From the IMG/VR virus record IMGVR_UViG_3300032373_000001: a DNA stretch of 64,000 nucleotides, one strand, 5' to 3'. Positions 234 to 48,683 of this stretch are shown here, one piece after another; position 1 is the first letter of the stretch, and each line of letters starts with the position of its first letter. The position numbers and the translations under genes are program-made. The notes below the pieces were generated by a model. That model saw nothing but the letters and a program-made list of their open reading frames with translations, was not told the origin of the DNA and did no database searches. The DNA is from a virus (lineage: Duplodnaviria; Caudoviricetes).

Positions 234-806
234 TCAGCGACCGGCGTAGAGCTCGACCCTCAAGAGGAACTGCTTGAAAGCCTCGTCCGGGACCCACCCA
301 GCGCCAGCGAACTCTTCCTGGGGCAGGGGGTCCGGGATATTCCCCCAGAGCTCTGGGATCGGCCTGCCTCGGAGGTACTCGCGCTCCGTGCTGAGCAGGA
401 GGTTGTCCACCCAGATCAAATCCTCGGTCATCCCCGGAGGCAACCCGCGCCACTCCCAGACCAGGTCCTGAACCTTGGCTTCCAGAGTGTAGTAGGCATC
501 CTTGATGCCCGGGAAGCGCTTCAGCGGTCGGGGGATGTCCACCAAGACATACTCAGACCCATCGTGGAACAGGAACTTGTGCGCCATCTCTTCATCGCCG
601 TAGCGCTGGAGGATGTAGTCGTGCCCTCGCACGGAGTGTTCCGCGACGGAGTAGAAGCGGTGCAGGTGACCGGCGAAGCGGCACTGGTTGCTCAGCGCGC
701 GAGCCATGCCGAAGAGGTCCAGCATCTCGATCCTCGGATCGAGAAAGTCGAAGGCAGTTGCATCGATGGTTTCGATGGTGCAGTGACTCGGTTCGATGTA
801 TGGCAA
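234..806 (-). CDS. HD-domain phosphohydrolase (YfbR-like 5'-deoxynucleotidase type)
   Basis: Motifs ALSNQCRFAGH, FYSVAEHSV and LFHDGSEYVLVDIPRPLK. TTG start with GGGAGG upstream. Confidence 0.8.
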   Translation of the reverse strand: MPYIEPSHCTIETIDATAFDFLDPRIEMLDLFGMARALSNQCRFAGHLHRFYSVAEHSVRGHDYILQRYGDEEMAHKFLFHDGSEYVLVDIPRPLKRFPGIKDAYYTLEAKVQDLVWEWRGLPPGMTEDLIWVDNLLLSTEREYLRGRPIPELWGNIPDPLPQEEFAGAGWVPDEAFKQFLLRVELYAGR

Positions 807-11273: not shown

Positions 11274-12620
11274 TCACCCTGCGGATAAGTGAAACTGTAC
11301 CAAGTTCCGGAACAACACTGGCTGCATCTTGCCAGTTTTCGGGGCCCGTGGTTGGGGGAGAGGGATCTCAGGTTCTTCTCGCAGGGTGTTGGAGGGACCC
11401 GGACCCACCCCCCGAGGATCGATAAACACTCCACCTTGAACGGTCGGTTCTTCGAAGGTCTCAGGGTCTGGGTCAGGCTCCTCTGTAATTTCAGTACCCG
11501 CAGGCGCCGCAGATGTGACCCCTAAAACAACTTGGGACATGCTCTGAATCCCAAGTTGACCCCGGAGAGCGAAGTGTACTGACCCGACATCCATCAGGAG
11601 CGTGTGGCGATTCACCCGGTGAGGAGGAGCAGCGAAGCGGGCAGCGATCCCTAAGAGGGTAGGACCCATCTTGCTGATGTTCCGGATTCGCTCGGGTTTC
11701 CAGTGGGAAGGGATTTTGCCGACGCCCAGGCTTTCCCGATAAGCGCACATCGATGCCTCGGCAAGACGCTCGTAGGCCGATGCGGGGCTGACCTCGTGCG
11801 CCATCTGGGTAGCGATGACGGTTGCCTTCTGAAGGTCGGTCGCCAGGTTCTCCAAGATATCCAGCGCGAGGTCATTGGCCCCCAGCCTCATGTACTGAGA
11901 GACGTTCGCCTTCGTCACCGCGCCCAACATGCTGACGCCCTCGACCGACTTCAACGCGTCCCGGATGTGACTCTCAGAAATCTCCGCGAGGGTCACCAGG
12001 GCATCGTGCTCGTACTCGATGCCCTCCTGCTGGCAGACCCAGGCGAGACGCTCTGCGATCTTCTCGGGGACGACCGAGCGAATGACGAAAGCTGGAGCAC
12101 AGCGACTGAAGATGGTGGAACGCATCCGCTCCGGCTCGGTCGTAGCAAAGATGCAGACGAGCTTCTTGTCCTGAGTGCCCTCGACGGAATCTTCCATCGG
12201 CTTCAAGAGGATGTCGAGGGCCTGCTTGGAGAGCTGGTGGCTCTCGTCGAAGAGGTAGATCTTCCGCTTGCCGCTGAAAGAGGAATAGCGGATCTCATCA
12301 ACGATCCGGGCCAGGTCCTCCTTCTTGGACTTGCTGGCAGCGTCCAGCTCCTCGAAGTTCTCGTGCGTCTTGCCTTCGAGGAGCGTGCGGCACGAGTGGC
12401 ACTCATTGCAGGGGTCCCCGTCGACAGGGTCGTCGCAAAGAAGCGCGCGGACCAAGATGCGGGCAGTGGTAGTCTTCCCGCTGCCGTGCTGACCGCAGAA
12501 CACATAGCTCTGCTGGAAGCCGCGACCCTCCTTGACGAACTGGCGGAGGACCGCGACGTGGGAATCTTGCCCCAGGACATCGTTGTAGTTTGCGGGGCGG
12601 TATTTGGTGTCGAGGGCCAA
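11274..12620 (-). CDS. dnaX: DNA polymerase III gamma/tau-like clamp-loader ATPase
   Basis: ALDTKYRP, VLGQ, Walker A GQHGSGKTTTARIL, CNECHSC zinc module, LFDESHQLS, LLKPMEDS, TIFSRC. Confidence 0.9.
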   Translation of the reverse strand: MALDTKYRPANYNDVLGQDSHVAVLRQFVKEGRGFQQSYVFCGQHGSGKTTTARILVRALLCDDPVDGDPCNECHSCRTLLEGKTHENFEELDAASKSKKEDLARIVDEIRYSSFSGKRKIYLFDESHQLSKQALDILLKPMEDSVEGTQDKKLVCIFATTEPERMRSTIFSRCAPAFVIRSVVPEKIAERLAWVCQQEGIEYEHDALVTLAEISESHIRDALKSVEGVSMLGAVTKANVSQYMRLGANDLALDILENLATDLQKATVIATQMAHEVSPASAYERLAEASMCAYRESLGVGKIPSHWKPERIRNISKMGPTLLGIAARFAAPPHRVNRHTLLMDVGSVHFALRGQLGIQSMSQVVLGVTSAAPAGTEITEEPDPDPETFEEPTVQGGVFIDPRGVGPGPSNTLREEPEIPLPQPRAPKTGKMQPVLFRNLVQFHLSAG

Positions 12621-20991: not shown

Positions 20992-22239
20992 TTAGGGGCT
21001 CCCGAACAGGTCTAAGGCATCAAGGTCCGTAGACCTCTCAGAAGGGCCTGCCTTATTACCGTGAAGACGGGCCATCGCCAGGGGGAGATAGTCAGGGTTG
21101 AGGTCAACCCCGACATAATCGCAACCCTCAGAAAGCGCCACCATCCCCGTCGTCGCAGACCCGCTAAACGGATCCAATACCACCGGGCGGGACACCGGGG
21201 CATCGCACTTACAGGGAGGAGCCCAACCTCCGGGACAGCGCTTCTGGCCCAAGGCATTTCCCCCCGAACCGGACCCCTCCCGGACCCGCGCTCCCCCGTC
21301 CCCCCGACCCGGATCGCCCCCCACCTTCGCAGCGGTGGGGCGGAGTGCGCGGGACTGCAAAGCCCTCCCCCAAGGCTTCCCGCAAGAAGAACAGACACCC
21401 TTGGAGGAAGCACCGAGCAGGATCAAGGGGCGGACCAGCTCTGCGGGCCAGGTGGCGAAATGCGCCCCCCTGTAAGGCTTCGGGTTCACTTGAAACCCGA
21501 GCGGGTGCCCGTCGTCCGATAGAAGGACGGGCGAGTCCGCGTTCAAGACCTCCAGGGAATACTCCCAAGAGTCAGAGTTCCTCCAATTCCGCTTCCTGCC
21601 GTAACGCTGGCGGACCTCGAAGGGGTCATAGAAGTAACGCCCCCCCGAGTCAGGGTGAGCCAGGAGGAAGACGTACTCGGTGGCCGTCGTGGGTCGGTCC
21701 AAGACCGACTCAGGCATTGGATTCCGCTTCACCCACGGAGCGGCAGACCTCAGATACCAACCGTCCTGCTGTAAGGCGAAAGCCACCCTCCAAGGGGCAC
21801 CGACCAGGTCCTTCGGCTTCAACCCTTCAGGGGTCGGGGGTCGGGCCGAGTTCCGCTGACCGTTAGACCCCCTGTTGGACTGCTGCTTGAACCCCACGCG
21901 AGTACCGTGCCCCTGCCGGCCCCCCGAAGCGTAGGAATCTCCCAAGTTCAGCCAGAGAACCCCGTCCGAGCGGAGAACGCGACGAACCTCTCGGAACACC
22001 CCCACTAAAGCCTGAACGTAACCCTCCAAAGAGTCTTCCAGACCAATCTGGTCTTCGGTCGCACCGTAATCCCGCAACCCCCAATAGGGAGGGCTCGTGC
22101 TTACGAGATGCACGCTGTTCTCGGGCAATCCGCGGAGGGTGGCACGAGCGTCTTCCCCGTAGTAGAGTTCCGCCTTCCCGCCTTGGGGGGAATAGAATAC
22201 GTCAGGACTCCTCAATGGACCGCCCCGCAGGTAGGACAC
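20992..22239 (-). CDS. DNA N4-cytosine/N6-adenine methyltransferase (beta class)
   Basis: Catalytic TSPPYWGLRDY precedes the SAM-binding VLDPFSGSATTG. CSSC...CKC insert. C-terminus DALDLFGSP. Confidence 0.85.
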   Translation of the reverse strand: MSYLRGGPLRSPDVFYSPQGGKAELYYGEDARATLRGLPENSVHLVSTSPPYWGLRDYGATEDQIGLEDSLEGYVQALVGVFREVRRVLRSDGVLWLNLGDSYASGGRQGHGTRVGFKQQSNRGSNGQRNSARPPTPEGLKPKDLVGAPWRVAFALQQDGWYLRSAAPWVKRNPMPESVLDRPTTATEYVFLLAHPDSGGRYFYDPFEVRQRYGRKRNWRNSDSWEYSLEVLNADSPVLLSDDGHPLGFQVNPKPYRGAHFATWPAELVRPLILLGASSKGVCSSCGKPWGRALQSRALRPTAAKVGGDPGRGDGGARVREGSGSGGNALGQKRCPGGWAPPCKCDAPVSRPVVLDPFSGSATTGMVALSEGCDYVGVDLNPDYLPLAMARLHGNKAGPSERSTDLDALDLFGSP

Positions 22240-23570: not shown

Positions 23571-24785
23571 CTACTTGTCGCCATCTTCGTCGAACATGCC
23601 GTCCAAGCCCTTCAGCTCCGCGCTGATCTCGTCATCCTCCTCCAGCGCCTCGTCCGAGAACTGCGCGGCGGCTCCCTGACCCAGGAGCGGTCGGACCGTA
23701 TCCCGGAGAGCATCCACCAACTCCGGGTTCTCCTTGAGGTGCTTGAGGAACTTCTCAGTCCCCTGAAGCATGAGGGACTTGCCCGGAGCACCTTCCCATT
23801 TGACCCAGGAGCCGGACTGCTTGATGATGCCATGAGCCTTGGCGATCTCCAGGAAGGAGCGGACATTGTCGATGCCCTCCCCCCAGCGGATGTAGAAGAT
23901 CTCCTCACGACCCTGGCTGCGGCTCATCTTGCACTTGATGGCGGTGACCTTGATGACACCACCGACCGTGCGCTCCTCGGTCTTGTGGGTCAGCTCGTTG
24001 AACTCCTTCGCCTTCTCGTTCTGGACACGACGGAGCTCCAGGCGAACCGAACTGTAGAACTTCCAGGCGTTGCCACCCTGCGGCTTGCTCTGCTTGCCCA
24101 TCCGGGCCATGGTGGCGCGGACCTGACTGATGCCGATGACCGCAGTGCCCGTCCGGGCAATGACACCCTTGAGCTTCGGCAGCTCCTGGGACCACACCGC
24201 CTGAAGCTCGCCGACCTTGCCCTGCTCAGCCGAGTCCAAGGCATCGCGCTCGGCCAGACGACGAGGCACCGCCGCACCGACCGAGTCGAAGACGATGACA
24301 TCGACGCCTGCGGTGGCATAAGCGATGGCGAACTTCACTCCGTCCTCGAGGGTCTCCGGCTGAAGCAGCTCGAAGCGGTCGGGGTCGGTGATCGGGATAC
24401 CCAAGCTGGCTGCGTAGTCTGGGACGATGTCGTTCTCCCAGTCGATGTAGACAGCGGTGCCCCCTGCGGCACAAACCGCAGCACAGCACTCCAGGGCCAG
24501 CGTGGTCTTACCAGCCGACTCGTGGCCCCAGATCTGGACGACGCGACCTCGCGGAAAGCCAGGGCAAGGGGGGACGCCGAAGGAGTTGGGCTCACCGCCG
24601 ATGAGGTAGTCGATCACCTCACACCCAGAAGTGAGGTGGGGGAGGCTCTGACGAAGGGCCTCCGGATCCAGCGCCACGCGGATGTCGGTGAACTTCTTCT
24701 TCAGCTTCTTTTCGAGGTAGCCGCGCGCTGCGGCCAGGGGGCTCTGCGCCCCGCTCAGGTCTTTTGAGGACTTAACGGTAGCCAT
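23571..24785 (-). CDS. recA: RecA recombinase
   Basis: GFPRGRVVQIWGHESAGKTT, VIVFDSVGA, IGISQVR, GGNAWKFYSSVRLEL, IIKQSGSW. Confidence 0.95.
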   Translation of the reverse strand: MATVKSSKDLSGAQSPLAAARGYLEKKLKKKFTDIRVALDPEALRQSLPHLTSGCEVIDYLIGGEPNSFGVPPCPGFPRGRVVQIWGHESAGKTTLALECCAAVCAAGGTAVYIDWENDIVPDYAASLGIPITDPDRFELLQPETLEDGVKFAIAYATAGVDVIVFDSVGAAVPRRLAERDALDSAEQGKVGELQAVWSQELPKLKGVIARTGTAVIGISQVRATMARMGKQSKPQGGNAWKFYSSVRLELRRVQNEKAKEFNELTHKTEERTVGGVIKVTAIKCKMSRSQGREEIFYIRWGEGIDNVRSFLEIAKAHGIIKQSGSWVKWEGAPGKSLMLQGTEKFLKHLKENPELVDALRDTVRPLLGQGAAAQFSDEALEEDDEISAELKGLDGMFDEDGDK

Positions 24786-25435
24786 CAGGACTCCAGGTTG
24801 GACCAAAGGAAGAAACGGTCGTCTTCCCGGTAGATTGTGCCGCGCTTGACCGTCTTGCCAGCCTTCTTGCCGCGCGTAAACACCTTCACCTCAGTGAAGA
24901 ACTTCCGCTCGACGGGGGAGAGGTCGGCTTGGGAGAGGGTGCCATCGTATAGCTCCCAGAACCGAGCGCTCAGTCTGGCGCAATGGTATGCGTCGGCTTC
25001 GTTGTGGTTCCAGCGGCCAGGTCCTGCATCGACCTTGACTGCCTCGACCATGTCTTTCTTGTCCATCTTCCACCCCTTGGGGCGGTTGACGAGCTCTCTT
25101 GCGTGCGCCTTCAACTGGAGCGGGGTCCAGAAGACGACATCACATCGGGTCTGGCGGAGGGCCTCGCACGTGAACAGGAACAGGCCGTACATTCCTTCCG
25201 ACCACAAGTTCCCGAAGACTGGGAACTCAACACCCACGGCGTCGGGCCGAAGTTCTTCGACCAGCTCCACCAAGCGCTGGCGTTGCAGCATGTAGCGGGT
25301 GATGAATTCTTGCTTGGACGAGGTCTGGAACCGACCTCGTTGCTCGCACCGCCGAGGATCTCCTCCCGGCATGGAGGTGTCGTGCAGCGCCCAACCGTAG
25401 TTGGTCAGGGAAGGGTCTACGCCCAAGACTCTCAT
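24785..25435 (-). CDS. ruvC: RuvC-like Holliday junction resolvase
   Basis: MRVLGVDPSLTNYGWAL, VGVEFP, NEADAY acidic residues. Adjacent to recA. Confidence 0.75.
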   Translation of the reverse strand: MRVLGVDPSLTNYGWALHDTSMPGGDPRRCEQRGRFQTSSKQEFITRYMLQRQRLVELVEELRPDAVGVEFPVFGNLWSEGMYGLFLFTCEALRQTRCDVVFWTPLQLKAHARELVNRPKGWKMDKKDMVEAVKVDAGPGRWNHNEADAYHCARLSARFWELYDGTLSQADLSPVERKFFTEVKVFTRGKKAGKTVKRGTIYREDDRFFLWSNLES

Positions 25436-26380: not shown

Positions 26381-27352
26381 CTACGAGAACAGCCCATCAA
26401 GTGCGTTTGCGATGTTCTGTTCCTCGGCAGTCATCCCCGGCTCCTGAGTCAGGACACCGGTGAGAAGGTCATCCAAGAAATCAGCTTCTGCAGTGGAACC
26501 CTCGACAGCCTTCTTAGGCTGGGGTTCTGGCTCAGGCTCGGTTGCGACCGGGACCGGAGGCACTGACGGGACCGGAGGCACGTCTGAGACTGTAGTAGCC
26601 CCCAGATGACCGTTCTCACAGAGGGACCCGTCCGGGGTCTGGTGCTGAGGCTCACCGCAGACGCTACACAACCCCAAGTATGGGTAGGAATGCAGCGGAG
26701 GGGCTTCCTCCTGCACCTGCTCCGCCAGCATCTCTTGCTCGACCTCTTGGACGGTCTTCCCGGTCTCTCGGGTCCGCTTGAACAGCTCCGTCAGGGACGC
26801 CGGGCTCAGGCCCGCAGCGGTTGGGTCCTCGACCTTTCGGGGGGCTGGCTTGGAGCCCCATCGCTGGCCCAGGCCAATCTGCTCTTGGCAGAGCTTGAGC
26901 TGGTCCCGCAGGCGTCCCTGAGCGTCCTTGAGGTCGGCCTTCTTGGACTTGACCGCGCTCATGATCATCACCAGATCATCTCTGGTTGAGGCCAGTCTCG
27001 ACGCCAACTCAACTTGGGGGCGGAGCTGGTAGGTGGCAAGCGCTTCCTGCGTAGACTGGTTGCGGGCGGAACGGATCTCCACGTTGTTGGCATAGAGATC
27101 CATCTTCTCCAGGTCCAGGGTCAGCTCTGCCGTGCGGTGAGCTGCTTTGTACTGCTGGATGAGCGAAGAGATCTTGAGGTAGACTGCCTCGGTCTGACTC
27201 AAGAACCCGCGCGTGGCGGAGATCTTCTTGTTCAGCCTGCCGGGACCGTATCGAAGAGGGTCCGGATCAAGGAGCACCTCCATCGAGGTGAGCGCGGCAT
27301 ACAGCCTGTTGACCGCATCTTGAGAAACCTGGGGGAGGTCTTCAGCCTTCAT
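26381..27352 (-). CDS. Coiled-coil protein with a Zn finger (possible UvsY-like mediator)
   Basis: Long N-terminal helices, CSVC...CENGH, Pro/acidic tail ending ALDGLFS. Confidence 0.65.
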   Translation of the reverse strand: MKAEDLPQVSQDAVNRLYAALTSMEVLLDPDPLRYGPGRLNKKISATRGFLSQTEAVYLKISSLIQQYKAAHRTAELTLDLEKMDLYANNVEIRSARNQSTQEALATYQLRPQVELASRLASTRDDLVMIMSAVKSKKADLKDAQGRLRDQLKLCQEQIGLGQRWGSKPAPRKVEDPTAAGLSPASLTELFKRTRETGKTVQEVEQEMLAEQVQEEAPPLHSYPYLGLCSVCGEPQHQTPDGSLCENGHLGATTVSDVPPVPSVPPVPVATEPEPEPQPKKAVEGSTAEADFLDDLLTGVLTQEPGMTAEEQNIANALDGLFS

Positions 27353-32624: not shown

Positions 32625-34274
32625 ATGAAGCTCCAGCTCACCGAAGCTCAGGCATGCGCGTTCGCCGACGACTCAGGCGTGCCCGCCCTCCTCCCGGCTG
32701 ACCTCACGAAGGCTTTCACACAGCGCTGCGCAGTCCGCGTTCTGGCAGCTTTCTGTGCGGGCGGGCACGACACCATCACCCGCCGCGACATCATGGGAAC
32801 CCTGGTTGCCGCCGGATTCCCCGCCAAGCAGAACCCCAACGGCAAGGTGGTCCGAGGCAAGCTGGGCATCCCCGGCGTCCCCTTCGGCGGCTCCGACTGG
32901 GTCGGCGACGTGATGAAGAAGCACTGCTCGCCCAGCGACCGCCGCAGCTACTGGGACATCACCGGAAAGGTGGAGGTTCCCTCCGAGCCCGAACCTCAGG
33001 CAGCCATGGAAGAGGCGTCGGCGGATGAGGTGATGGCAGCCTTTGCCCTCCTCGACCAGCCCAGCCCGGCCTACCGGGAGCCGCCGACCGCCCAGGAGCA
33101 GGACGCCTTCGAGCAGCTGTTCGACCAGGGCACCCCGCTGCCGTCCGCCGCTGGGGCCAGCGTGCCCTCCCTGACCGGCGACATCGCCTCCCCGACCACC
33201 ACCCAGGACTACCTGAACCTGCTGGTGGCGGAGGAGTCCCTCGCTGCGATGGCCGCCATGCCCATCATCACCCCGGCAGCGCGGGCCATCCTGACCTCGA
33301 CCCTCAAGCAGGTCCGGACGGCACTGCCCTCCGAAGACCTCGTCAGCGAGTGGGTCACCGACATGCCGCTGGCGGAACTCAAGCGGCGGGTCGCCAAGGG
33401 CGAGACGCTCACCTCAATCTGGTTCGAGATGGAGATCCGCTACGGAGCGCTCCAGCAGAAGGCAGTCACCCTGATGCGGAAGACCTTCACCATCGAGAAC
33501 GAGGAAGACCTCGAAGGGGACTTCCGGCTGGCTCTGGCGAAGTGGTCGGTCTGCGAGCCCCGCAAGAACCTCAGCCCCGGCGGCACCCCCCAGGACCAGT
33601 GGAAGGCGGGAGGTTACTGCGACAAGTTCATCCTGCAGGGCCAGCCCCCCACCCTCAACAAGCTGATCTACTGGCTGAAGCACAAGGTCACCAGCCGCCT
33701 CCAGCGGGAGGGGCAGATCCCGGAACTGCGGCAGGCCAAGGGCGTCCGCACCCAGCTGGAGCTGACCGAGATCAACGTGAGCGGGGACGCTGGGTTCATG
33801 CACCCCGACGCACTGCTCGGCGACCCCAACTCCCCCCGAGCGGTCTGGGTCGGTGACATCGAAGACGGCACCCGCCGTCAGGAGTTCGTCGCCCCGGAGA
33901 ACACCCGCAGCAGCGACTCCCCCCTGGAAGAGGGGGAGGTCGATGCCCTCATCATCGCCATGAAGATGGCCGGGGTCGAGTGCGCTGAGGCGGTAGTCAC
34001 CGGCATCCAAGAAGGCAACACCACCGCCGATACCCAGGTGGCGCTCCAGGCCGTGGCGGTGCTGGTGGCCAACTCCACCGCCGTCCTGCGGCTGGTGGTC
34101 GAAGAGCCCTACAGCACCACCGAAGACCTCTCCGGAGAGGTCGAGATGGCCCCCGACCAGCTGGCCCTGGCCCTGGACTTCCTCCGGGTCAAGGGCTACC
34201 TTGAGGCGCAGGGGGCCTGCTACATCGCCAGCGATGCGGGTCGGGCAGCGGATCAGATCCAGCTGGTCGCCTGA
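32625..34274 (+). CDS. Large early hypothetical protein (sigma-like middle, winged-helix C-terminus)
   Basis: 549 aa with very strong C/G third-position bias. C-terminal STTEDLSGEVEMAPDQLALALDFLRVKGYL is wHTH-like. Confidence 0.85.
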   Translation: MKLQLTEAQACAFADDSGVPALLPADLTKAFTQRCAVRVLAAFCAGGHDTITRRDIMGTLVAAGFPAKQNPNGKVVRGKLGIPGVPFGGSDWVGDVMKKHCSPSDRRSYWDITGKVEVPSEPEPQAAMEEASADEVMAAFALLDQPSPAYREPPTAQEQDAFEQLFDQGTPLPSAAGASVPSLTGDIASPTTTQDYLNLLVAEESLAAMAAMPIITPAARAILTSTLKQVRTALPSEDLVSEWVTDMPLAELKRRVAKGETLTSIWFEMEIRYGALQQKAVTLMRKTFTIENEEDLEGDFRLALAKWSVCEPRKNLSPGGTPQDQWKAGGYCDKFILQGQPPTLNKLIYWLKHKVTSRLQREGQIPELRQAKGVRTQLELTEINVSGDAGFMHPDALLGDPNSPRAVWVGDIEDGTRRQEFVAPENTRSSDSPLEEGEVDALIIAMKMAGVECAEAVVTGIQEGNTTADTQVALQAVAVLVANSTAVLRLVVEEPYSTTEDLSGEVEMAPDQLALALDFLRVKGYLEAQGACYIASDAGRAADQIQLVA

Positions 34275-34314
34275 CCCCTTGTAGGGTGGCAACCCACCCC
34301 CCGACTTCGAACCG

Positions 34315-34347
34315 AATCCCCCAGCCGTCACGGCTGGGGGATTTTTT
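34315..34347 (+). terminator. Intrinsic terminator
   Basis: aatcccccagccg-tca-cggctgggggatt followed by tttt. Confidence 0.85.
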
Positions 34348-34934
34348 GATTCTGCGTTCGACCCCCACCCTGCAAGGGGTTCCCTCTGTAATGCCCCCAG
34401 GAAACGCCTCCTTGGCGTTTCCCTTCCGGGGCCCATCGGGTATAGGGTGGACGGGCCTCTCTATTTCCCGAAGGGAAGGGAGAGTGTCCTCGGGCCTCCA
34501 GCGGGGTTGACGGTTGCTCCAAACCATCTTCGCTCAGTCTGTAGGGTGCCGAGGCAGGGGAAACCCTGGTGGCAAGGAACTCCACCGCCCACCCTCAATG
34601 AGAGTGATCGGCCTCATTGAGCAAAACGGGAACTAACCAAGGCTCCACCCAAGTGAACCCCGCAGAACAACTCACTCCCCACTACTCCCGACGCCGCGCA
34701 GCGGCGAGCGGACGAGTGGGAGTGCTGCCAGGCTCATGGGTGTCGGGGCTGTCTTGTCAAGGGTGCCCTCCGACCCTCCCTACGCCGTCAGGCGTAGGGA
34801 ACCAGCTCAAGGTGTTGAGCCGGTCGGAGATAAACAGGCCCCCGGCAGGACGTCTTGTCTTCCTGACCGCCGAATCCCAGGAGTCCCCTGCTCTTGCCCC
34901 CCTGGCCGAAGGCCAAGCGGCAGTGAGCAGGTGG

Positions 34935-35372
34935 ATGGATGCCGGAGCCCTCGGAAGAGGGGAATACATTCTTGTTGATTCTGATTCCAACCCTTCAGGG
35001 GAAGGAATTGGGTATCAAGAAGAATTGGTTCAAGGTTTATGCATGGAAGATACCGACTCTAACAACAAGAACCAGATCCTTACTAAGAAGCCTACATCCA
35101 AGAACCCTACAACCAATACCAAGAAGCTGAGTGAGCATAAGCATCTGAGCCCTAAGCAGAACAACAAGAACCCTAAGAAGACAACCAACAAGAAGCTGAA
35201 CAAGAGTCTGAGTCGTGAGATACTTGCAGCGATTGAAGTCAGTCGAGAGAGAACTGCTCTGAGTCCGAGAACTGCTCTGAGTCCTGAGAGTGAGAAGAAT
35301 CTGAGAAGAGATTCTGTCTGTGTCTGGAAGAAGAGTTCCAGCTACCTGAGTCTTGGAGGGCTTCCAAGATGA
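34935..35372 (+). CDS. Low-complexity Lys/Asn-rich ORF overlapping the candidate origin
   Basis: NNKNQILTKKPTSKNPTTNTKK...RTALSPRTALSP. The stop overlaps the next start (ATGA). The true start is uncertain (open from 34617). Confidence 0.4.
   Translation: MDAGALGRGEYILVDSDSNPSGEGIGYQEELVQGLCMEDTDSNNKNQILTKKPTSKNPTTNTKKLSEHKHLSPKQNNKNPKKTTNKKLNKSLSREILAAIEVSRERTALSPRTALSPESEKNLRRDSVCVWKKSSSYLSLGGLPR
35249..35284 (+). repeat. 18-bp direct tandem repeat (2 copies)
   Basis: gagaactgctctgagtcc at 35249-35266 and 35267-35284. Confidence 0.95.
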
Positions 35373-35908
35373 ACAAGAAGAGATCGAACAACCTTGCCCC
35401 CTATCGGACTGCCTTGGAGCTTAGTCGGGACTGTAGCGTCCCCTTGATGCTCCTGGTTGAAGGCTATGCAGAGGTTCTGTTCCCCGAAGGGGACAAGAGG
35501 TCTGCACCGAGCAAGTGGGTGAAGATCCAACAAGTGGGAACCAAGACCGGGGAGCCAGGCTCCTACCAAGCTGTGCCAATCTACATTCTGGCTGAGCAAT
35601 GGAATCGAGTCTTCGTGCCCTTGTTGAATGAGAATGGGTCTCGTCCAGCTACTTGGAGAGGGATCCTACCTGGACTGAACAATAGGGATGTCCAGCTATT
35701 GGACTCCATTGTAGGTCCAGGAGGGTCGGTGCCTTCTGGCTTCGCCGAAGGCGACCTGATCGGGCAGAGTGCTCTGCCGACAGAGAGTCTGGGTCTGCTA
35801 TACGGCTGTGACCAGTCGATCTTGGATCGAACTACGGGCAAGACAGTGGACTACTTGAGCCAAGTCACTGCCTTGATCTACAACCAAGCAACCAGCCAGG
35901 GCTATTAG
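35369..35908 (+). CDS. Hypothetical protein with AT-richer codon usage
   Basis: 179-aa ORF coupled to the upstream ORF. Confidence 0.7.
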   Translation: MNKKRSNNLAPYRTALELSRDCSVPLMLLVEGYAEVLFPEGDKRSAPSKWVKIQQVGTKTGEPGSYQAVPIYILAEQWNRVFVPLLNENGSRPATWRGILPGLNNRDVQLLDSIVGPGGSVPSGFAEGDLIGQSALPTESLGLLYGCDQSILDRTTGKTVDYLSQVTALIYNQATSQGY

Positions 35909-36020
35909 GTCTCCCAGCAAGGGGGTCCCCCCAACTACCGAGCTTGATGTGTGCCCTGCCCACGAAGTGGGCAAAAGCAAGTCACCTTCGGGGGTAGGGC
36001 ATTCCAAGGAGGAGAGACCC

Positions 36021-36302: not shown

Positions 36303-36947
36303 ATGAGCCTGCTTTTCCATGGCCCCCTGGCGCGAGACGCAGCAGTGGCCGAAGGCCAGAAGCTGGGTCGGCCGCAAGACCCGCTTGGCGACAAAGGACT
36401 CAAGATCGCTGACAGTCGGGCCATCGCCAAGATGGCCCTCCTGCCGGGAATCGGAGACCACCCCCCTTCCTTGGTGGTGGGTCCGCTGGACTCGGCAACG
36501 CCCGAAGCGGCCGATGCCCTCCTCAAGACGATCGAGGAAATCTCCAACAAGCCCCTCCAGCTCATCTTTTGGGCCAATGACATCCGAGGGGTCATCAAGA
36601 CGATCCGGTCTCGATGCTTCACCCGATGGTGCCCCGCGCCCCTCAGTGGGCGCGGCTACCAAGACCCCCTGGCCCACCTAAAGGGACACGCCAACTCTTT
36701 GATGAGGGCTGCCCTGGAAGGCGACGTAGGTCGCCTTCTGTCCTCCTTGGAGGAGGCTGGGGCGGCTACCCCCTCGGTGGTGTTTAAGGGGGTGGAGGAC
36801 CTTGCTGGGAGCTTAGATGGGGCCTCTGCCCTGCGGGCAGTGAAGCTCTGGGAGCGGATCCGTAAGTCTCGCGTCTTGCATCCCCGTGCCAACCTGGGGC
36901 CGGTCAGCTATGCGGCTGTCCTCCTGCCTTTTGAGGAGGACGCATGA
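36303..36947 (+). CDS. holB: DNA polymerase III delta-prime-like clamp-loader subunit
   Basis: EAADALLKTIEE and KTIRSRC (SRC arginine finger). No Walker A. Confidence 0.8.
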   Translation: MSLLFHGPLARDAAVAEGQKLGRPQDPLGDKGLKIADSRAIAKMALLPGIGDHPPSLVVGPLDSATPEAADALLKTIEEISNKPLQLIFWANDIRGVIKTIRSRCFTRWCPAPLSGRGYQDPLAHLKGHANSLMRAALEGDVGRLLSSLEEAGAATPSVVFKGVEDLAGSLDGASALRAVKLWERIRKSRVLHPRANLGPVSYAAVLLPFEEDA

Positions 36948-43047: not shown

Positions 43048-44211
43048 CTATTCGACTCCGAAGTCGTCCATGAAAGAAGCATCCTTGGCCTGTTCGCTGA
43101 GGTGCTTCTTTTTGCGGTATGCGTGCTGCTCTTGGGGCGAGCGATGCTTGGCCCGCCACTTCTGGTACTTGGCGAACTCCTCCTCCTGAGTGCCCGCTCC
43201 CGCCAGGTCTTCTCGGAGATACATGACGAGCGAGATGCGCTCGTAGTTCTCTTCGCCTTCCACTGCGGGCTCGATCGGGGTGTTGCCGTGGAAGTGGTGC
43301 GCGACATCCATCCCGACGAAGTCCCCCTGCCGGCAGTCGAAGGCCACCCGGAACTGGGGGAAGACTGTGTAGCCGCCCTTGTAGGTGTGCTCCCCAGCTT
43401 CCAGGACACTGAAGTTTTCCAGCCCCGCCTTGAAGTCCCCCGCGTCCTGGTGACAGGCGGTCTGGAAGTTCTTGTTGACGGTGATGGTCGAGTACACGGT
43501 GCCCGGAACAACCCACTCCCGCTTGTCGAGCTCGTGCTGCTCCACGAATTCCCGCTGGGTCTGGTAGCGGTCGGGGTGTAGCTCTTCGAAGAGCTCGGTG
43601 CACCGTCGGAGGAACGGCCACGCCTGCTTGAACTTGTCCCAGTTGTCGCGGGTGTATGCGGTCTTGCGGACGTAGGGGTTCCGGGCGGTCGGGGGGAAGA
43701 AGCCTGCAATTCCGCCCATGGTCATGTTGGCTTCGACTGTGTCGGAGATGAGCCCATCCTTGGTGACGTACTTGGCGCGAGTGCCGTCGCCCACAGGGAT
43801 GACACGTGCAACGTCTCGACCGAAGCGGGTGGGGTCCACCTTGCCTCCGGCCACCCCCCGGTTCTTGGAAGGGCGGGCAGCCCCCTTCAGCCCGATATAG
43901 GCCCCCTCACACTCTTCCGGAGTGAAGACCCCCTTGCGGAAGACCAGAAACAACCGCTCGGCCAACCCCTCTTCCTCGGTCTTCTCGTCGCCGAACATGT
44001 CGAACACGCTCTCTTGGTGCGGCGCGTAGACGTTGGTGTCGCCGTTGACCAGGACCTCGAAGGAGTCCACGTCGATGAACTCTGCCTTGAGCTTGGCGGT
44101 CTCCTCGTCTGTGAGGAAGCCCTCTCCCGTCAGTTCTACGCAGAGGACCCCGTCCTCTCGGGTCCACTCGTACCAGACCAGTCCGTTGCTCTCTTTCCGC
44201 TGTTTGTCCAC
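43048..44211 (-). CDS. TET/JBP-family 2-oxoglutarate/Fe(II) dioxygenase
   Basis: YSTITVNKNFQTACHQDAGD (HxD), FPQFRVAFDCRQGDFVGMD, HGNT (distal His), ERISLVMYLRE (2OG Arg). GTG at 44211 with AGGAGG. Confidence 0.85.
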   Translation of the reverse strand: MDKQRKESNGLVWYEWTREDGVLCVELTGEGFLTDEETAKLKAEFIDVDSFEVLVNGDTNVYAPHQESVFDMFGDEKTEEEGLAERLFLVFRKGVFTPEECEGAYIGLKGAARPSKNRGVAGGKVDPTRFGRDVARVIPVGDGTRAKYVTKDGLISDTVEANMTMGGIAGFFPPTARNPYVRKTAYTRDNWDKFKQAWPFLRRCTELFEELHPDRYQTQREFVEQHELDKREWVVPGTVYSTITVNKNFQTACHQDAGDFKAGLENFSVLEAGEHTYKGGYTVFPQFRVAFDCRQGDFVGMDVAHHFHGNTPIEPAVEGEENYERISLVMYLREDLAGAGTQEEEFAKYQKWRAKHRSPQEQHAYRKKKHLSEQAKDASFMDDFGVE

Positions 44212-44302
44212 CCAGCACCTCCTGTTCACTCGACTAAAAACGAAGCCGACCCCTCTACTTACCGTGAGAGGGGTCGGCAGGCCACAACCTTAATGTTCGA
44301 GG

Positions 44303-45325
44303 TTACCCGCCGAACATGTCGAAGGCGTCGTCGGGTCGGGGGGCGATTTCCACGGGCTTGCCTTGGATGCGTCGGAGGTGCGGGAAGATGTCCTTGGAGG
44401 AGACCCCAGCGATGTCCTCGATGTCGATCAGCTCTCGCAGCTGGTTGTGGCGCGCTGCCACAACCTTGCGCGGGTTCTTGTCGAAGTTGGTCCACTGGTA
44501 GAGCTGCTCGGTCTCGAACTCGTAAGGTTCGAACTCCGGGAATTTGAACGGGCCTTCCTCTCGGAGGAACAACTCCGGGGACTTCTGCTCAGCGCTCAAG
44601 GCATGCCTCAAGAAGGCGCGGCACCAGCGGATGGCGGAGAGCATCTCGTCCATGTTCAGGGTGCCAGGGAAATGGCGGAACTCGATGGTCTCGGTCTCTT
44701 CCCACATCTGGCGGAGGTTGATGCCGGCACGTGGGCTGAAGTACCACATGCGACCCTTCTCGGTCGCCGGTGCGTGCTCCTCGTAGAAGCCTTGGGTGGT
44801 CGTGGCTGCGAGCATCGCCGCAACTCGTTTCTTGGGCATCTTGTACTGGTGGGACTTGTGCCGCCTCTTTTCCCGCTTCCGTTCCCACTCATACACCTCG
44901 GGAGGCAGGCTGGGGTCCGTCTTGGGGATGCGTTCCACGATGCTGAAGGCGTCTTGCTGGTGCTGGTCGATGTACCGCAGCAACCTCTTGCAGCCCTCCA
45001 GGTCGTCCTTCAGCCCCGGAACCCGCACGTGGATGTGAAGGTTGGAGCGGTAGTTGACGATGGGTGCAGGACCCCCCTTCGGGAGGGCAGCGTTGATTCG
45101 AGCGATGTGCTCGACCTGCTGTTCCGGGGTGGAGGTCGGCCTCGTGTTGATCTCACCCCCGTACCGATACAGCTTGCCGACAGGGTCGTTGGCGATGCCC
45201 GTTGAAGAAACGCAGGTGTTGTCCTTGTCGTTCCACTGAGCGCCGTCGGGAAGCTCAGCGAAGCGGAAGCAGTTGCCGTACTCCAGCTCTGCACCGTAGG
45301 TGAAGCTGTCTACATCGTATTTCAT
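44303..45325 (-). CDS. Putative amidoligase (COOH-NH2 ligase, glutamine-synthetase-like fold)
   Basis: TYGAELEYG, GGEINTRPT, NLHIHV, TIEFRHFPGT. Coupled to the GATase gene. Confidence 0.75.
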   Translation of the reverse strand: MKYDVDSFTYGAELEYGNCFRFAELPDGAQWNDKDNTCVSSTGIANDPVGKLYRYGGEINTRPTSTPEQQVEHIARINAALPKGGPAPIVNYRSNLHIHVRVPGLKDDLEGCKRLLRYIDQHQQDAFSIVERIPKTDPSLPPEVYEWERKREKRRHKSHQYKMPKKRVAAMLAATTTQGFYEEHAPATEKGRMWYFSPRAGINLRQMWEETETIEFRHFPGTLNMDEMLSAIRWCRAFLRHALSAEQKSPELFLREEGPFKFPEFEPYEFETEQLYQWTNFDKNPRKVVAARHNQLRELIDIEDIAGVSSKDIFPHLRRIQGKPVEIAPRPDDAFDMFGG

Positions 45326-46032
45326 GGGGTCGGGGAAGCCTTGGGCTGGAGGTCCTGTTGGGACTGAGGAGAGCCGACGCTCAGCAGGCTGAGGACCCTG
45401 GCTCCGGGGGTGAGCTGCGTCTTGTAGTGCATCTTGAGCTGCATGGGGTCGTTCTCGACTCCTGACCTCAACGCGATGTCCCGCGTTGAAGTGATCAGTT
45501 GACCGTTGTTTACCTTGGTGAGGTAAAGGGGGCGCTTGCCGTTGCGGTAGGCGATCATCGTCCGGTTGGCGTGAAGCTCTACCGCCGCGATGCTGGAGTC
45601 CAGCCAATCCTGGAACGGGTTGCCTCGCTTCCGAAGGAGGAGTTCTGTGTCGTTCTTGGTCTCGCAGGCGACCCCGTAGAGACCCTCCCAGTTCTCGGGG
45701 AGCTCCTGGGAGATGACCCCGTTGTGGACCAGCGCGGTGTCCTCAGTAGAGAGCGGCTGGTTGTACTCCAGGTCGCTGGTCGAGTACCTGCAGTGGCCGA
45801 GGAGGTACAGGTTCCCGTCTTCGTTGAGGTACTGCGAGGGGTCCTGGAGGTGACGCTCAACGAAGACCTCAGCGGGAACAGGTTCCTTGATCGTGTGCAG
45901 GTTCCCCCCTTGGAGCCATGTCATGCCCGTGGCATGCTTGCCACGGATTTGGCTCTGAAGGAACACTTCTACCAGCAGGTCAAGCTCTGCCGGCTTGGGG
46001 GCCGCGAAGTATGCCCCGATTACTCCACACAT
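45322..46032 (-). CDS. Class II (Ntn) glutamine amidotransferase
   Basis: N-terminal MCGVIG, RGKHATG, GHCRYST, NQP, VHNGVI, NDTE. Confidence 0.85.
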   Translation of the reverse strand: MCGVIGAYFAAPKPAELDLLVEVFLQSQIRGKHATGMTWLQGGNLHTIKEPVPAEVFVERHLQDPSQYLNEDGNLYLLGHCRYSTSDLEYNQPLSTEDTALVHNGVISQELPENWEGLYGVACETKNDTELLLRKRGNPFQDWLDSSIAAVELHANRTMIAYRNGKRPLYLTKVNNGQLITSTRDIALRSGVENDPMQLKMHYKTQLTPGARVLSLLSVGSPQSQQDLQPKASPTP

Positions 46033-47510
46033 CACTCACCCCCAAAGAGGTCGAACACATCATCGCGGGTGTCGGCCTTGATCGTATCGCCTTTGAACAT
46101 CCACCCCATCCGGGCAAACTTCCCTGAGTCCAGGAAGGTGTAGCCTGCGGGATTGATGCCGGTGCGGTGCGTCAGCCGGTAGTCCAGCTGCTCAGTGCGG
46201 GACTGCCAGAGCACGTCCCAGTCGATCCCATGCCAGCCGTCGCCCTCGCACCGTTGAATCTCCCCCGCCTGCCGGTCCAGATAGTATCCGAGGTAGCGAC
46301 TGTGCTTCGGTCGCCAGATCTTCTTGAACGAGCAGAGGCACGTCTCCATGCTGAAGAAGTCGGCGTCCTTCTTCAGGCGGGGGAAGCGGGCGTGCACCTC
46401 TGCCAAGATGGAGGCCCCCTCCTCTTCCAGCCGCTGGTACTCTCCCGCAGTCAGCTTAGTGTCGACCTCGGACTCCCGCCCCAGTGCCCAGAGCAGTCCG
46501 TTCCGGTGAGAGCGGCTGCCGCTGTAGTCCTTCAACATGAGGGAGGTGGCTTCCACCGGAACACCTGCCGTGTGCTTCAGGTGCTGGAGGAAGAACCACG
46601 TAGAATAGCGACCAAACTTGTAGAGCCCGCTGAGCTGCCCCCACAGGTTCTCGAAGGTTTCTTCCTCGGTCTCCCCGTAGAACTGAGCGAAGCGGTCGTG
46701 CTGGAGCCCGTTGCCCACCCACTCAGCATAGCTGGCGTACATGGCCGGCAGGTGACCCTTGTTCCATTTGGTGTCGGTCTGGTAGCGGAGCCTGGAGTAG
46801 TTGGCATTGTTCCAGAGCGTCAGCCGGTCGTGCGTTGCCAGCTCGAAGTCGGGGAACTCGTTGATGATGATCCAGCTCGTCGGGAGGTAGTAGGTGTTCC
46901 CGTACAGCCAGCTCAGCCACAGTCTCTGTTCCGAGTTGTGCTCGTACCGCTCGTGGAGGTAGTTGGTCATCCACAGGGCCGGGTCACAGTCCCGGAATTG
47001 AAGGGACCATGCATACCACCGGATGAAGGCTTCCCTCCGGTTCTCCGTAAGCCTGTAGTCCCCTGGGGGAGGGGCATGGGTAGGCAGGCCGCATCGGAAC
47101 AGGCGCATGGCGGAGCGGATCTGGTCGACCACTCGCTTGTGGTCCTTGGTACCCTTGGAGTAGTTGGGGTCCGGAATCCGCGTCTCACCGATGAGGTCGC
47201 TGACCCGAACAGACTTCCCGAAGACCTCGTCGCCGAACTGCTCTCGCAGCCGACGCTCGTTGCCGTTGTCCATGTAGAAGATGACGTCGGCCCAGTCGAT
47301 GAGGTCTTGGCGGACGGCGGTGGACCGGATGCCCAGACCATCCAGGCCCCGGCTCCTCAAGGCTGTGCGCATCTTCTTCGTGGTCCGGACCCCGTCCTTG
47401 CCTTTGAGGGCAGCGGAGCGGATGTCCCAGTGAGGCTCCATTGCTTGGAGCATGATGTGCCCGGCCGGGGAACGGTTGATGTTCCCGTGGCACAAAAACA
47501 AGACGCGCAC
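46032..47510 (-). CDS. Fusion: LMW phosphotyrosine-phosphatase-like domain + alpha-glutamyl/putrescinyl-thymine pyrophosphorylase (clade-3-like amino acid:DNA transferase)
   Basis: N-terminal LFLCHGNINRS (CX5R), WADVIFYMD, IPDP. C-terminal RREAFIRWY, DCDP, WLYGNTY, RYQTDTKW, KFGRYSTWFFLQHL, ETCLCSFKK, YLGYYLDRQ. One uninterrupted ORF. Confidence 0.8.
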   Translation of the reverse strand: MRVLFLCHGNINRSPAGHIMLQAMEPHWDIRSAALKGKDGVRTTKKMRTALRSRGLDGLGIRSTAVRQDLIDWADVIFYMDNGNERRLREQFGDEVFGKSVRVSDLIGETRIPDPNYSKGTKDHKRVVDQIRSAMRLFRCGLPTHAPPPGDYRLTENRREAFIRWYAWSLQFRDCDPALWMTNYLHERYEHNSEQRLWLSWLYGNTYYLPTSWIIINEFPDFELATHDRLTLWNNANYSRLRYQTDTKWNKGHLPAMYASYAEWVGNGLQHDRFAQFYGETEEETFENLWGQLSGLYKFGRYSTWFFLQHLKHTAGVPVEATSLMLKDYSGSRSHRNGLLWALGRESEVDTKLTAGEYQRLEEEGASILAEVHARFPRLKKDADFFSMETCLCSFKKIWRPKHSRYLGYYLDRQAGEIQRCEGDGWHGIDWDVLWQSRTEQLDYRLTHRTGINPAGYTFLDSGKFARMGWMFKGDTIKADTRDDVFDLFGGE

Positions 47511-47519
47511 GGGCGCCTC

Positions 47520-48137
47520 CTACTCGAAGGAGTGGATGAAGTCCAGGATCTGCTGTGCCACCTCGGATGGGGTGACGCCCTCCACCGTGATGTTGAGCAG
47601 TCGGTTCTCTTCGTCCGTCGGATCGCCCCCGTCGCCGAACATGTCGAAGAGGGAGTTGTCCTGGGGCAGGAAGCGGTCAGCGAAGCGTCGGGCCTTGCTG
47701 ACGCGCCCCTTGAGCCAAGTGGGGTTTTGGTCGCTGCCCCGCTCCTTGCGGCGCGCATCCATCACTTCGTCGCTGGCCCCCAGGTGAGCGCAGAGCACCT
47801 TGACGCCTCGGTCTTCCAGGAACTTCTTCGCATTGGCGTGACTGAAGCGGTCGCCGTCGAACACCGTGTACTTGTAGGTGGCGTCGGGGAGGATCTCCTC
47901 CTCCCAGTGCTCCACGCAGGGGACCCAGCCATCGTTGGGGACCGTGTCTGCGCCGTCGAAGGTTCCGGTCCCGTAGTGGCCTGCGAACACGTAGGGGCCT
48001 CCATTCTGAAGGCACCACTTGATCTTCTTGGTCTCGTCGTGGGTGAAGTTGGTGTAGTCCTTCCCGAGGATGATACGGGCGGTGGTTGTTTTGCCGACGC
48101 CTGGAGGGCCGACGAGGAACAGCGCGATGTGGGCCAT
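47520..48137 (-). CDS. P-loop kinase of hypermodification loci (5-hydroxymethyluracil-DNA-kinase-like)
   Basis: GPPGVGKT, GHYGTGTFDGADT, FDGDRF, RRKERGSDQNPTWLKGR. Directly upstream of the aGPT gene. Confidence 0.8.
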   Translation of the reverse strand: MAHIALFLVGPPGVGKTTTARIILGKDYTNFTHDETKKIKWCLQNGGPYVFAGHYGTGTFDGADTVPNDGWVPCVEHWEEEILPDATYKYTVFDGDRFSHANAKKFLEDRGVKVLCAHLGASDEVMDARRKERGSDQNPTWLKGRVSKARRFADRFLPQDNSLFDMFGDGGDPTDEENRLLNITVEGVTPSEVAQQILDFIHSFE

Positions 48138-48140
48138 TTT

Positions 48141-48683
48141 CTATCCTTCCTGGGCGATCTTTACGAGCCAAGGATACAGGTTCTTGTGGTTGGGTTCGGC
48201 GTAGAGGAAGCCCCTCCCGCCTGCGTCGTGGAACTCTCGGGTGTTCCGGTCGTAGTCATCCACGAGGTAGCTCTCGGGGGTCGCGTAGAACTGCTTCTGG
48301 CGAGAGGTCGCTACGCAGTTGAACCTCCGCAGCGCTTTCAGGTCGATCAAGTCCCCGTAGTGTTTGCGGAGGAACTCTACCTTCCCGGCGTGAGCCGCCT
48401 CTCCCATGTCCCCATCGTAGGAGCCCAGCGAGGTGAGGATCTCCACGTTCCAGCCGTTCTCGTGAGCTGCCTCCATCAGGACCTTCCAGTCCTTCAGGTG
48501 GAGGGGTGCGGCTTCGCTGAAGAACTTCCTCTTGCCTACCGTCTTCCACGCCTTCACGTAGTGGGCGTGCTTTTCTCGGTCGGGGAGATGGCCGTAGGAG
48601 CCAGGCTCCCATCCGAGGAGCTGATCGCATCGTCCGACGAAGTCCACGAGGACCCCGTCCATGTCAAGGTACAAGGTCTTCAT
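48141..48683 (-). CDS. HAD-superfamily 5'(3')-deoxyribonucleotidase
   Basis: LYLDMDGVLVDF, ILTS, GK, LVDDY...N. Confidence 0.8.
   Translation of the reverse strand: MKTLYLDMDGVLVDFVGRCDQLLGWEPGSYGHLPDREKHAHYVKAWKTVGKRKFFSEAAPLHLKDWKVLMEAAHENGWNVEILTSLGSYDGDMGEAAHAGKVEFLRKHYGDLIDLKALRRFNCVATSRQKQFYATPESYLVDDYDRNTREFHDAGGRGFLYAEPNHKNLYPWLVKIAQEG

Follow-up and report, generated by a model that had tools for sequence, protein, structure and literature searches.

The viral contig IMGVR_UViG_3300032373_000001 (Duplodnaviria; Caudoviricetes) is ~271 kb long. We analyzed 64 kb of it, about a quarter, with a G+C content of ~62%; this whole stretch of DNA is referred to here as the window, and gene absences reported below hold for the open reading frames (ORFs) scanned in it. 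At 43048-48683, the window carries six closely packed minus-strand genes, which are the subject of this study. They encode a HAD-family protein, a P-loop kinase, a fusion of a low-molecular-weight (LMW) phosphatase domain to an amino-acid:DNA transferase (AADT), a stand-alone glutamine amidotransferase (GATase), an amidoligase and a TET/JBP dioxygenase (Table 1). The junctions include gaps of 3 nt and 9 nt, the latter between the kinase and AADT genes, and two overlaps, one of them between the reading frames of the GATase and the amidoligase.

A first-pass annotation, made from the sequence alone, had described these genes as co-oriented, tightly packed and equipped with intact catalytic motifs. 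Coordinates, strand and motifs could be read directly and agree with this description, and profile searches of each ORF upheld all of the family assignments. Overall, we consider that the locus is probably a cluster for post-replicative hypermodification of thymine in a large (at least 270 kb) phage, with the late steps and the mode of recruitment described below.

A terminator-like hairpin and U-tract lie in the gap between the amidoligase and TET genes. The fold of 44205-44310 has an energy of -43.1 kcal/mol (z -2.4); a simple scan for terminator patterns did not list the hairpin, which direct folding shows. Since it parts TET from the amidoligase, the expression of TET may be distinct from that of the other five genes.

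Table 1. Positions of the cluster genes, their domains and other features of the window
Feature	Position	Strand	Evidence
HAD 5'(3')-deoxyribonucleotidase-like protein, 180 aa	48141-48683	-	phrog_2643 2e-24; DMDG
P-loop kinase, 205 aa, candidate 5-hydroxymethyluracil-DNA kinase	47520-48137	-	Ploopntkinase3 2e-5; GPPGVGKT
LMWPc::ADDT fusion gene	46032-47510	-	ADDT 3.3e-23, LMWPc 1.3e-13
LMW phosphotyrosine-phosphatase/ArsC-fold domain, residues 1-140 of fusion	47091-47510	-	LMWPc 1.3e-13
AADT domain, clade 2 aGPT-Pplase, PF18724, residues ~151-472	46095-47060	-	ADDT 3.3e-23
AADT disordered C-terminal tail, ends FDLFGGE	46035-46094	-	structure model and motif scan
Class II (N-terminal nucleophile, Ntn) GATase, stand-alone, 236 aa	45322-46032	-	GATase_6 5.9e-10; GATase_7 6.9e-6
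Amidoligase_2 (glutamine-synthetase-like COOH-NH2 ligase), 340 aa, C-terminal FDMFGG	44303-45325	-	PF12224 4.5e-5
Terminator-like hairpin (12-bp GC-rich stem) and U-tract, amidoligase/TET gap	44236-44278	-	RNA fold
TET/JBP Fe(II)/2-oxoglutarate 5-methylpyrimidine dioxygenase, 387 aa	43048-44211	-	Tet_JBP 5.2e-20
N6/N4 DNA methyltransferase, 415 aa, ends LDLFGSP, outside operon	20992-22239	-	N6_N4_Mtase 2.5e-33
Beta-type sliding clamp, 390 aa	17628-18800	-	phrog_947 2.1e-24
DnaX-like clamp-loader gene	11274-12620		
Delta-prime-like clamp-loader gene	36303-36947		
YfbR-like HD-domain 5'-deoxynucleotidase candidate	234-806	-	
UvsX-like recombinase	23571-24806	-	
Protein of no known family, 323 aa, beside DEDD exonuclease	26381-27352	-	
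Region of lower G+C	34274-35949		
ThyX-like protein, 525 aa	50833-52410	-	GHSS block; RHR
Protein with Zeta-toxin/AAA_33 kinase domain, 385 aa	52361-53518	+	

Enzymes of the cluster and a candidate pathway

The TET/JBP protein most likely starts at a GTG codon at 44211, behind AGGAGG, which gives the length in Table 1 and matches the length called in sister contigs. It scores 71.8 bits against Tet_JBP (PF12851; cut-off 34.9), and the residues of its HxD...H...R motif (H254, D256, H308 and R325) are invariant among 52 homologues. The structure model has a predicted local distance difference test score (pLDDT) of 94.8, and the top solved folds in a Foldseek search with it were CMD1, human TET2, CcTet and NgTET1 (E 1e-9 to 1e-11); a sequence search of solved structures gave one spurious match and nothing useful. 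The substrate is most likely thymine rather than 5-methylcytosine (5mC), as read from the thymine-modifying neighbours and from the finding of no C5-methyltransferase in the window. For phages, TET/JBP enzymes from clades C1 and C2 have been shown to act as thymine dioxygenases, and GATases, P-loop kinases and AADTs are "consistently linked" with the clade C1 members (O'Toole 2026, PMC13229309).

The kinase has an intact Walker A motif and scores 24.6 bits against Ploopntkinase3 (PF18751; cut-off 27). Its identity is 64-71% to kinases of related TET/AADT clusters in its own lineage (loci L008, L016 and L018) and 26-29% to T4-like kinases that match PF18751, such as those of locus L015. Kinase and AADT share a cluster in all related loci with both ends present. 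The HAD protein matches Pfam NT5C with an E value of 0.024, under the cut-off; HAD genes 36% identical to it adjoin the kinase in L016 and L018, and the gene is kept in a sister phage (L020).

The AADT domain, called aGPT-like in the first-pass annotation, does match that family by profile (ADDT, PF18724; 83.1 bits, cut-off 26.2) and has more than 1300 homologues. An E389-T-x-L-C393 motif is invariant in 35 homologues. The domain is 27% identical over 327 residues to Cba120 orf248 (ViI gp247 type), and C393, the candidate essential Cys, aligns with a Cys of that protein. Clade 2 AADTs have an essential Cys and a neighbouring Glu and act after a 5-hydroxymethyl-deoxyuridine (5-hmdU) DNA kinase, and their C5-methylene intermediate also captures exogenous thiol or hydride; this kinase-AADT chemistry has been reconstituted (Lee 2021, PMC8989533).

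The phosphatase domain scores 51.9 bits against LMWPc (PF01451; cut-off 23.2), with intact C-x5-R-S and DP motifs, and is joined to AADT by a linker whose residues 142-146 are disordered in the structure model. In the T4-like locus L012, a 143-aa LMWPc protein with 51% identity to it is encoded by a gene of its own directly upstream of AADT. We considered and rejected the fusion as a unique feature: the two are also fused in L008 and are neighbouring genes in L012. In all three loci (the window, L008 and L012), the phosphatase occurs together with the amidoligase.

The GATase scores 39.7 bits against GATase_6 (cut-off 27) and begins Met-Cys-Gly, with Cys in the position of the N-terminal nucleophile. 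It adjoins this AADT subfamily in every related locus carrying that subfamily (13/13). The amidoligase scores 23.9 bits against PF12224 (cut-off 22), a match limited to the last 40 model positions. It has 719 homologues, and most of the 120 that were listed carry a precomputed PF12224 assignment; a search of its sequence profile against solved structures found no relative. In related loci, GNAT and amidoligase alternate at one position beside the constant GATase-AADT pair, and clusters of the L002 type consist only of TET, GATase, GNAT, AADT and kinase, with no other ammonia user.

These assignments suggest the following route. TET/JBP would hydroxylate thymine in DNA to 5-hydroxymethyluracil (5hmU), the P-loop kinase would phosphorylate 5hmU, and AADT, through its Cys and Glu, would expel the phosphate and generate an exocyclic C5-methylene that captures a nucleophile. 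We regard this core, which the first-pass annotation had also put forward, as highly probable on the basis of homology and context. The same inference has been made in the literature (e.g., Lee 2021, PMC8989533): clusters of this type are already published, and the pathway is the published reading of them. In the late steps, ammonia derived from the glutaminase would be fed to AADT, yielding 5-aminomethyluracil, and the ATP-dependent amidoligase would N-acylate this base with a carboxylic acid, as GNAT would do in some T4-like phages. The late steps are put forward tentatively, their chance being somewhat below even. The fused LMW phosphatase possibly removes unreacted base phosphate, and the HAD enzyme, which travels with the kinase, is likely a nucleotide-pool or phosphate-editing accessory.

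Ammonia is the simplest choice of nucleophile because GATase is constant with AADT, GNAT needs 5-aminomethyl-dU, an FAD lyase is missing from the cluster and the AADT intermediate captures other nucleophiles. In phage PaMx11, GNAT acetylates 5-aminomethyl-dU only, and not the glycine adduct, and an FAD lyase is required to expose the amine of 5-aminomethyl-dU (PMC8989533). No FAD lyase of the PaMx11 kind is present in the window cluster.

In an alternative scheme with the same core, AADT would install a free amino acid (e.g., glycine or serine), the amidoligase would activate its carboxylate, and ammonia from the glutaminase would amidate it. Amino acids are the substrates of every clade 2 AADT characterised to date (PMC8989533), and amidation would abolish a negative charge of which other phages dispose by decarboxylation. 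GATase and amidoligase are also adjacent here, with overlapping frames, and co-occur in other phage groups according to the literature. However, many T4-like relatives keep GATase and this AADT without the amidoligase, having GNAT instead, and the characterised PaMx11 GNAT requires a free primary amine (PMC8989533). We rate amidation as rather unlikely. The first-pass annotation had suggested that amidoligase and GATase may extend or amidate an amino-acid adduct; the two families stand, but their roles may differ from this.

Several points weigh against the pathway, with amination followed by acylation, that we prefer. The Pfam scores of the kinase and the HAD protein are below their cut-offs, and that of the amidoligase is close to its own. 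As a rule, class II glutaminases work as fusions with the synthase that they serve, and we know of no precedent for ammonia transfer to an AADT. The remaining three quarters or so of the genome could hold a dUMP hydroxymethylase, a C5-methyltransferase or ParB. Finally, ParB-less clade C1 TETs that were tested earlier were inactive on thymine or 5mC in E. coli (PMC13229309).

A shared peptide and the sliding clamp

A six-frame scan of the window found four occurrences of FD[ML]FG, all of them in genes of the operon. The pattern [FL]D[ML]FG is common to TET, kinase, AADT, amidoligase and the N6/N4 methyltransferase encoded outside the operon; it was observed 6 times in 19,208 aa (4/6 in the operon), compared with 0.055 expected from composition. 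In AADT, the motif lies in a C-terminal tail, of which residues 473-492 have pLDDT <50 and residues 482-487 form a short helix in the structure model. The kinase copy (FDMFG, residues 164-168) is internal, as is one copy in TET (FDMFG, residues 70-74), whereas a second TET motif, FMDDFG, is located near the C-terminus; both TET motifs are kept in ~40 close homologues. The motif sites are kept in L008 and in the sister phage, and the amidoligase tail is found only in homologues of the jumbo-phage (beta-clamp) lineage.

Some other proteins of the window have similar peptides. The YfbR-like nucleotidase candidate carries LDLFG at residue 29, possibly by chance or as part of its fold. The UvsX-like recombinase ends near LDGMFDE, and ALDGLFS is the C-terminus of the 323-aa protein that neighbours the DEDD exonuclease; both endings may represent another version of the putative docking tail.

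In T4-like relatives, gp43 polymerase, TET, GNAT and AADT all end LE[DE]F[FM], and nearly all of 120 AADT homologues have a GLExF end. The C-terminus of T4 gp43 itself reads SLDFLFG, which we take, from the T4/RB69 literature, to be its gp45-binding element. In Cba120 (ViI type; L011, 145308-152403, and L021, 28731-28943), the polymerase, AADT, the P-loop kinase at the ViI gp243 position and a 70-aa protein have in common a VNL[LM]x[LM][LM] tail, as found in a scan of 62 kb of the 157-kb genome. Bacterial beta-binding motifs include QL[SD]LF, and QADMF in Pol III alpha. On the sequences compared, the tail appears to track the type of replisome rather than the family to which an enzyme belongs.

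The window encodes a sliding clamp of the beta type, and a profile of 70 homologues of this protein matches solved beta clamps over the full length (E 6e-17). Clamp-loader genes are present as well (Table 1). A complex of the clamp with the AADT tail was predicted with a score of 0.58, the best control reaching 0.01 (partner pLDDT at least 40; runs agreeing in at least 37% of contacts). With this method, 58 of 80 solved complexes attained the mark, against 2 of 110 mismatched pairs; at scores of 0.60 or lower, it was attained by only 7 of the 80 solved complexes and by both passing mismatches.

We consider it moderately likely that the shared peptide tethers the enzymes to the phage beta clamp, and the N6/N4 methyltransferase may also be tethered in this way. 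With clamp-bound enzymes, modification would follow the replication fork. The peptide could instead be real but dock on another hub (polymerase, single-stranded-DNA-binding protein or a multi-enzyme scaffold), or serve as a degradation or regulatory signal. In favour of such a role, and at the same time against the tether, the complex prediction gave weak support; the replicative polymerase was not found in the window, so that its tail is missing from the comparison; and the model shows the internal TET motif as a short, ordered helix (pLDDT ~90) that may belong to the fold. Two more points count against the tether: the prediction model may already know solved clamp-peptide complexes, and the pattern was defined after the motif had been seen. 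On the other hand, the T4-like tails equal that of gp43, the form in the window resembles the beta-binding motifs, and the tail changes with the type of replisome; we rate a hub other than the clamp, or a signal, as rather unlikely.

The proposed clamp tether also bears on the activation of the dioxygenase. Many clade C1 TETs require a ParB-like activator (PMC13229309). A ParB domain was not found among the ORFs within ~7 kb on either side of the operon (Pfam, E up to 0.01), nor in the related loci examined. The first-pass annotation had called the operon self-contained, a label that may be too strong: the TET clade with such neighbourhoods often needs this activator. Related thymine dioxygenases use ParB as activator, and here the replicative clamp may take over that role. 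If so, the ParB-less TETs would have been inactive in E. coli because they were alone, the clamp being their activator. The phage clamp and its loader would be a concrete and plausible missing factor for these enzymes.

There is a precedent for a post-replicative DNA-modifying enzyme on a sliding clamp: T4 alpha-glucosyltransferase binds gp45 (PMC13216743, citing Sommer 2004). That case concerns one enzyme alone, for which no shared tail is defined, whereas here several enzymes and a methyltransferase share a peptide, and its binding is predicted. A clamp-binding motif on hypermodification enzymes is mentioned neither in O'Toole 2026 (PMC13229309) nor in the results of a full-text literature search. 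Should the tail serve as a handle for the clamp, this would account for the successive action of several enzymes on newly synthesised DNA, and phage genomes could be searched for DNA-modifying enzymes by a simple sequence marker. In the broadest version of this model, a portable tail would recruit the whole pathway and the methyltransferase to the clamp and would be rewritten between gp45-, ViI- and beta-type replisomes, the clamp would replace ParB, and amination by GATase-AADT followed by acylation by the amidoligase would give an undescribed base. That all of these parts hold together is speculative and, in our estimate, rather improbable.

Related clusters and known systems

A sister phage (87% nucleotide identity) has the same six genes in the same order, with ThyX and ribonucleotide reductase in synteny. 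In L008 (50% G+C), the kinase, the same phosphatase::AADT fusion, GATase and amidoligase are present, and genes for a TAGT-like glycosyltransferase, an S-adenosylmethionine (SAM) methyltransferase and an epimerase precede TET. Kinase, HAD and TET are also present in the cousins L016 and L018, where they frame an AADT of another type (30% identity). In T4-like phages from the sea and from freshwater, TET-GATase-GNAT-AADT-kinase or TET-GATase-amidoligase-LMWPc-AADT-kinase lies beside gp43, UvsX and gp41. The same enzyme families cluster in L008, L012 and L015, and in all lineages examined TET invariably occupies an end of the cluster.

The individual proteins differ in which of these relatives they resemble. 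TET is 59-67% identical to proteins of its own lineage (L008, L016 and L018) and 33-41% identical to those of T4-like phages (L012 and L015), and the kinase has the same pattern. For AADT, identity is 59% to L008 and 30% to L016, compared with 65-67% to T4-like phages; the corresponding values for L008 and T4-like phages are 57% and 62% for the amidoligase, 47% and 51% for the phosphatase, and 49% and 49-54% for GATase. TET and kinase thus appear to be inherited within the jumbo-phage lineage, and the cassette of AADT, GATase, amidoligase and phosphatase appears closer to that of T4-like phages. This pattern points to a lineage-bound frame (TET, kinase and HAD) around an exchangeable cassette that would set the adduct.

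Other cassettes were seen in the cousins. Between kinase and TET, L016 (2208-11161) and L018 (1890-11167) encode a PIG-L deacetylase, a glycosyltransferase, a methyltransferase and a myo-inositol-1-phosphate synthase, with the addition of an NAD epimerase in L016 and of an ATP-grasp enzyme and a phosphatidylserine (PS) decarboxylase in L018. The gene content of these cassettes hints at thymine adducts bearing sugar or inositol.

The closest published parallels are the clade C1 TET neighbourhoods (O'Toole 2026, PMC13229309; Burke 2021, PMC8256090), in which TET, GATase, kinase and AADT also occur with no adjacent C5-methyltransferase, and for which conversion of thymine to 5hmU has been proposed as the priming step. 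The window differs from them in that no ParB was detected within 7 kb on either side, and in having a clamp-type tail on the enzymes and an amidoligase, a fused LMW phosphatase and HAD; PMC13229309 mentions no amidoligases or LMW-type phosphatases, and HAD is listed among the co-occurring domains in its Fig. 9. Contigs from metagenomes that carry a TET_JBP gene in place of the dUMP hydroxymethylase, together with genes for an amidoligase and an amidotransferase to which no role was assigned, have also been described (Lee 2021, PMC8989533).

Phages M6, ViI and PaMx11 (Lee 2018, PMC5889632; Lee 2021, PMC8989533) share with the window a 5-hmdU kinase, a clade 2 AADT with Cys and Glu, and tailoring; the PaMx11 route, like the one proposed here, ends with N-acylation of 5-aminomethyl-dU. 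These phages obtain their 5hmU ahead of replication through a dUMP hydroxymethylase, and they tailor it with pyridoxal phosphate (PLP), radical-SAM, FAD or GNAT enzymes. Here, TET would supply 5hmU, and tailoring would involve a glutaminase, an amidoligase and a phosphatase domain, with an AADT distant from the ViI type (27%). The uncultured T4-like clusters (UFOVP1666 type, L012) are similar to the window in having TET, GATase, Amidoligase_2, LMWPc, ADDT and kinase, with identities of 65% for AADT, 62% for the amidoligase and 51% for the phosphatase. They differ in their reversed gene order, separate phosphatase, lack of HAD, low identity of TET and kinase (26-33%), gp43/gp45-type tails and an amidoligase without a tail.

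What is known of TET-led clusters for thymine hypermodification comes solely from gene neighbourhoods, and a base product has been assigned for none of them. Together with its sister and cousins, the locus offers a compact six-gene set for reconstitution, and the chemical route, glutamine-dependent amination followed by ATP-dependent acylation, is testable.

Two further explanations concern the first step. A dUMP hydroxymethylase with its gene elsewhere in the genome might produce 5hmU ahead of replication, leaving TET a side role on residual thymine or in forming 5-formyluracil (5fU) or 5-carboxyuracil (5caU). All cultured kinase/AADT phages use the hydroxymethylase (PMC8989533), the rest of the genome lies outside the window, and iterative oxidation is supported in vitro for the phage thymine dioxygenases 5mYOX97 and 176. 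Yet a divergent ThyX is kept a few kb away in the phage and its sister, which points to a supply of dTTP, and TET holds its fixed place at the cluster end; in our view, this alternative is very improbable. The first-pass annotation had noted ThyX near the operon and no dUMP hydroxymethylase in the window, and indeed neither a ThyA-type hydroxymethylase nor a C5-methyltransferase domain was found among the window ORFs scanned. Equally remote is the notion that the dioxygenase acts on 5mC and the cluster hypermodifies cytosine via 5-hydroxymethylcytosine (5hmC): clade A and B phage TETs do oxidise 5mC, P-loop kinases occur in some such contigs and our view is limited to 64 kb, but the sole DNA methyltransferase found in the window is of the N6/N4 type, the AADT and kinase families have been characterised on 5hmU (PMC8989533), and a C5-methyltransferase is present in just 6% of phage TET neighbourhoods (PMC13229309).

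Other features of the window

In addition to the clamp, its loaders and the UvsX-like recombinase, the window encodes a Dda-like helicase, an Mre11/Rad50-like pair and a class II ribonucleotide reductase. A region without a confident ORF (Table 1), situated immediately ahead of the clamp-loader genes, has a lower G+C content (0.58 in the bin 34001-36000). Two proteins beside the DEDD exonuclease gave nothing useful in sequence comparisons with solved structures, and atlas look-ups of the 323-aa protein and of a 557-aa protein returned no family.

The ThyX-like protein has an N-terminal GHSS block and a C-terminal RHR, with a long insertion between them; Phe is present where Ser usually follows RHR. 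It is kept in the sister phage (L019, L020), and a sequence search against solved structures gave nothing useful. Adjoining it on the opposite strand is the 385-aa protein, whose kinase domain occupies the C-terminal half and which is also kept in the sister phage.

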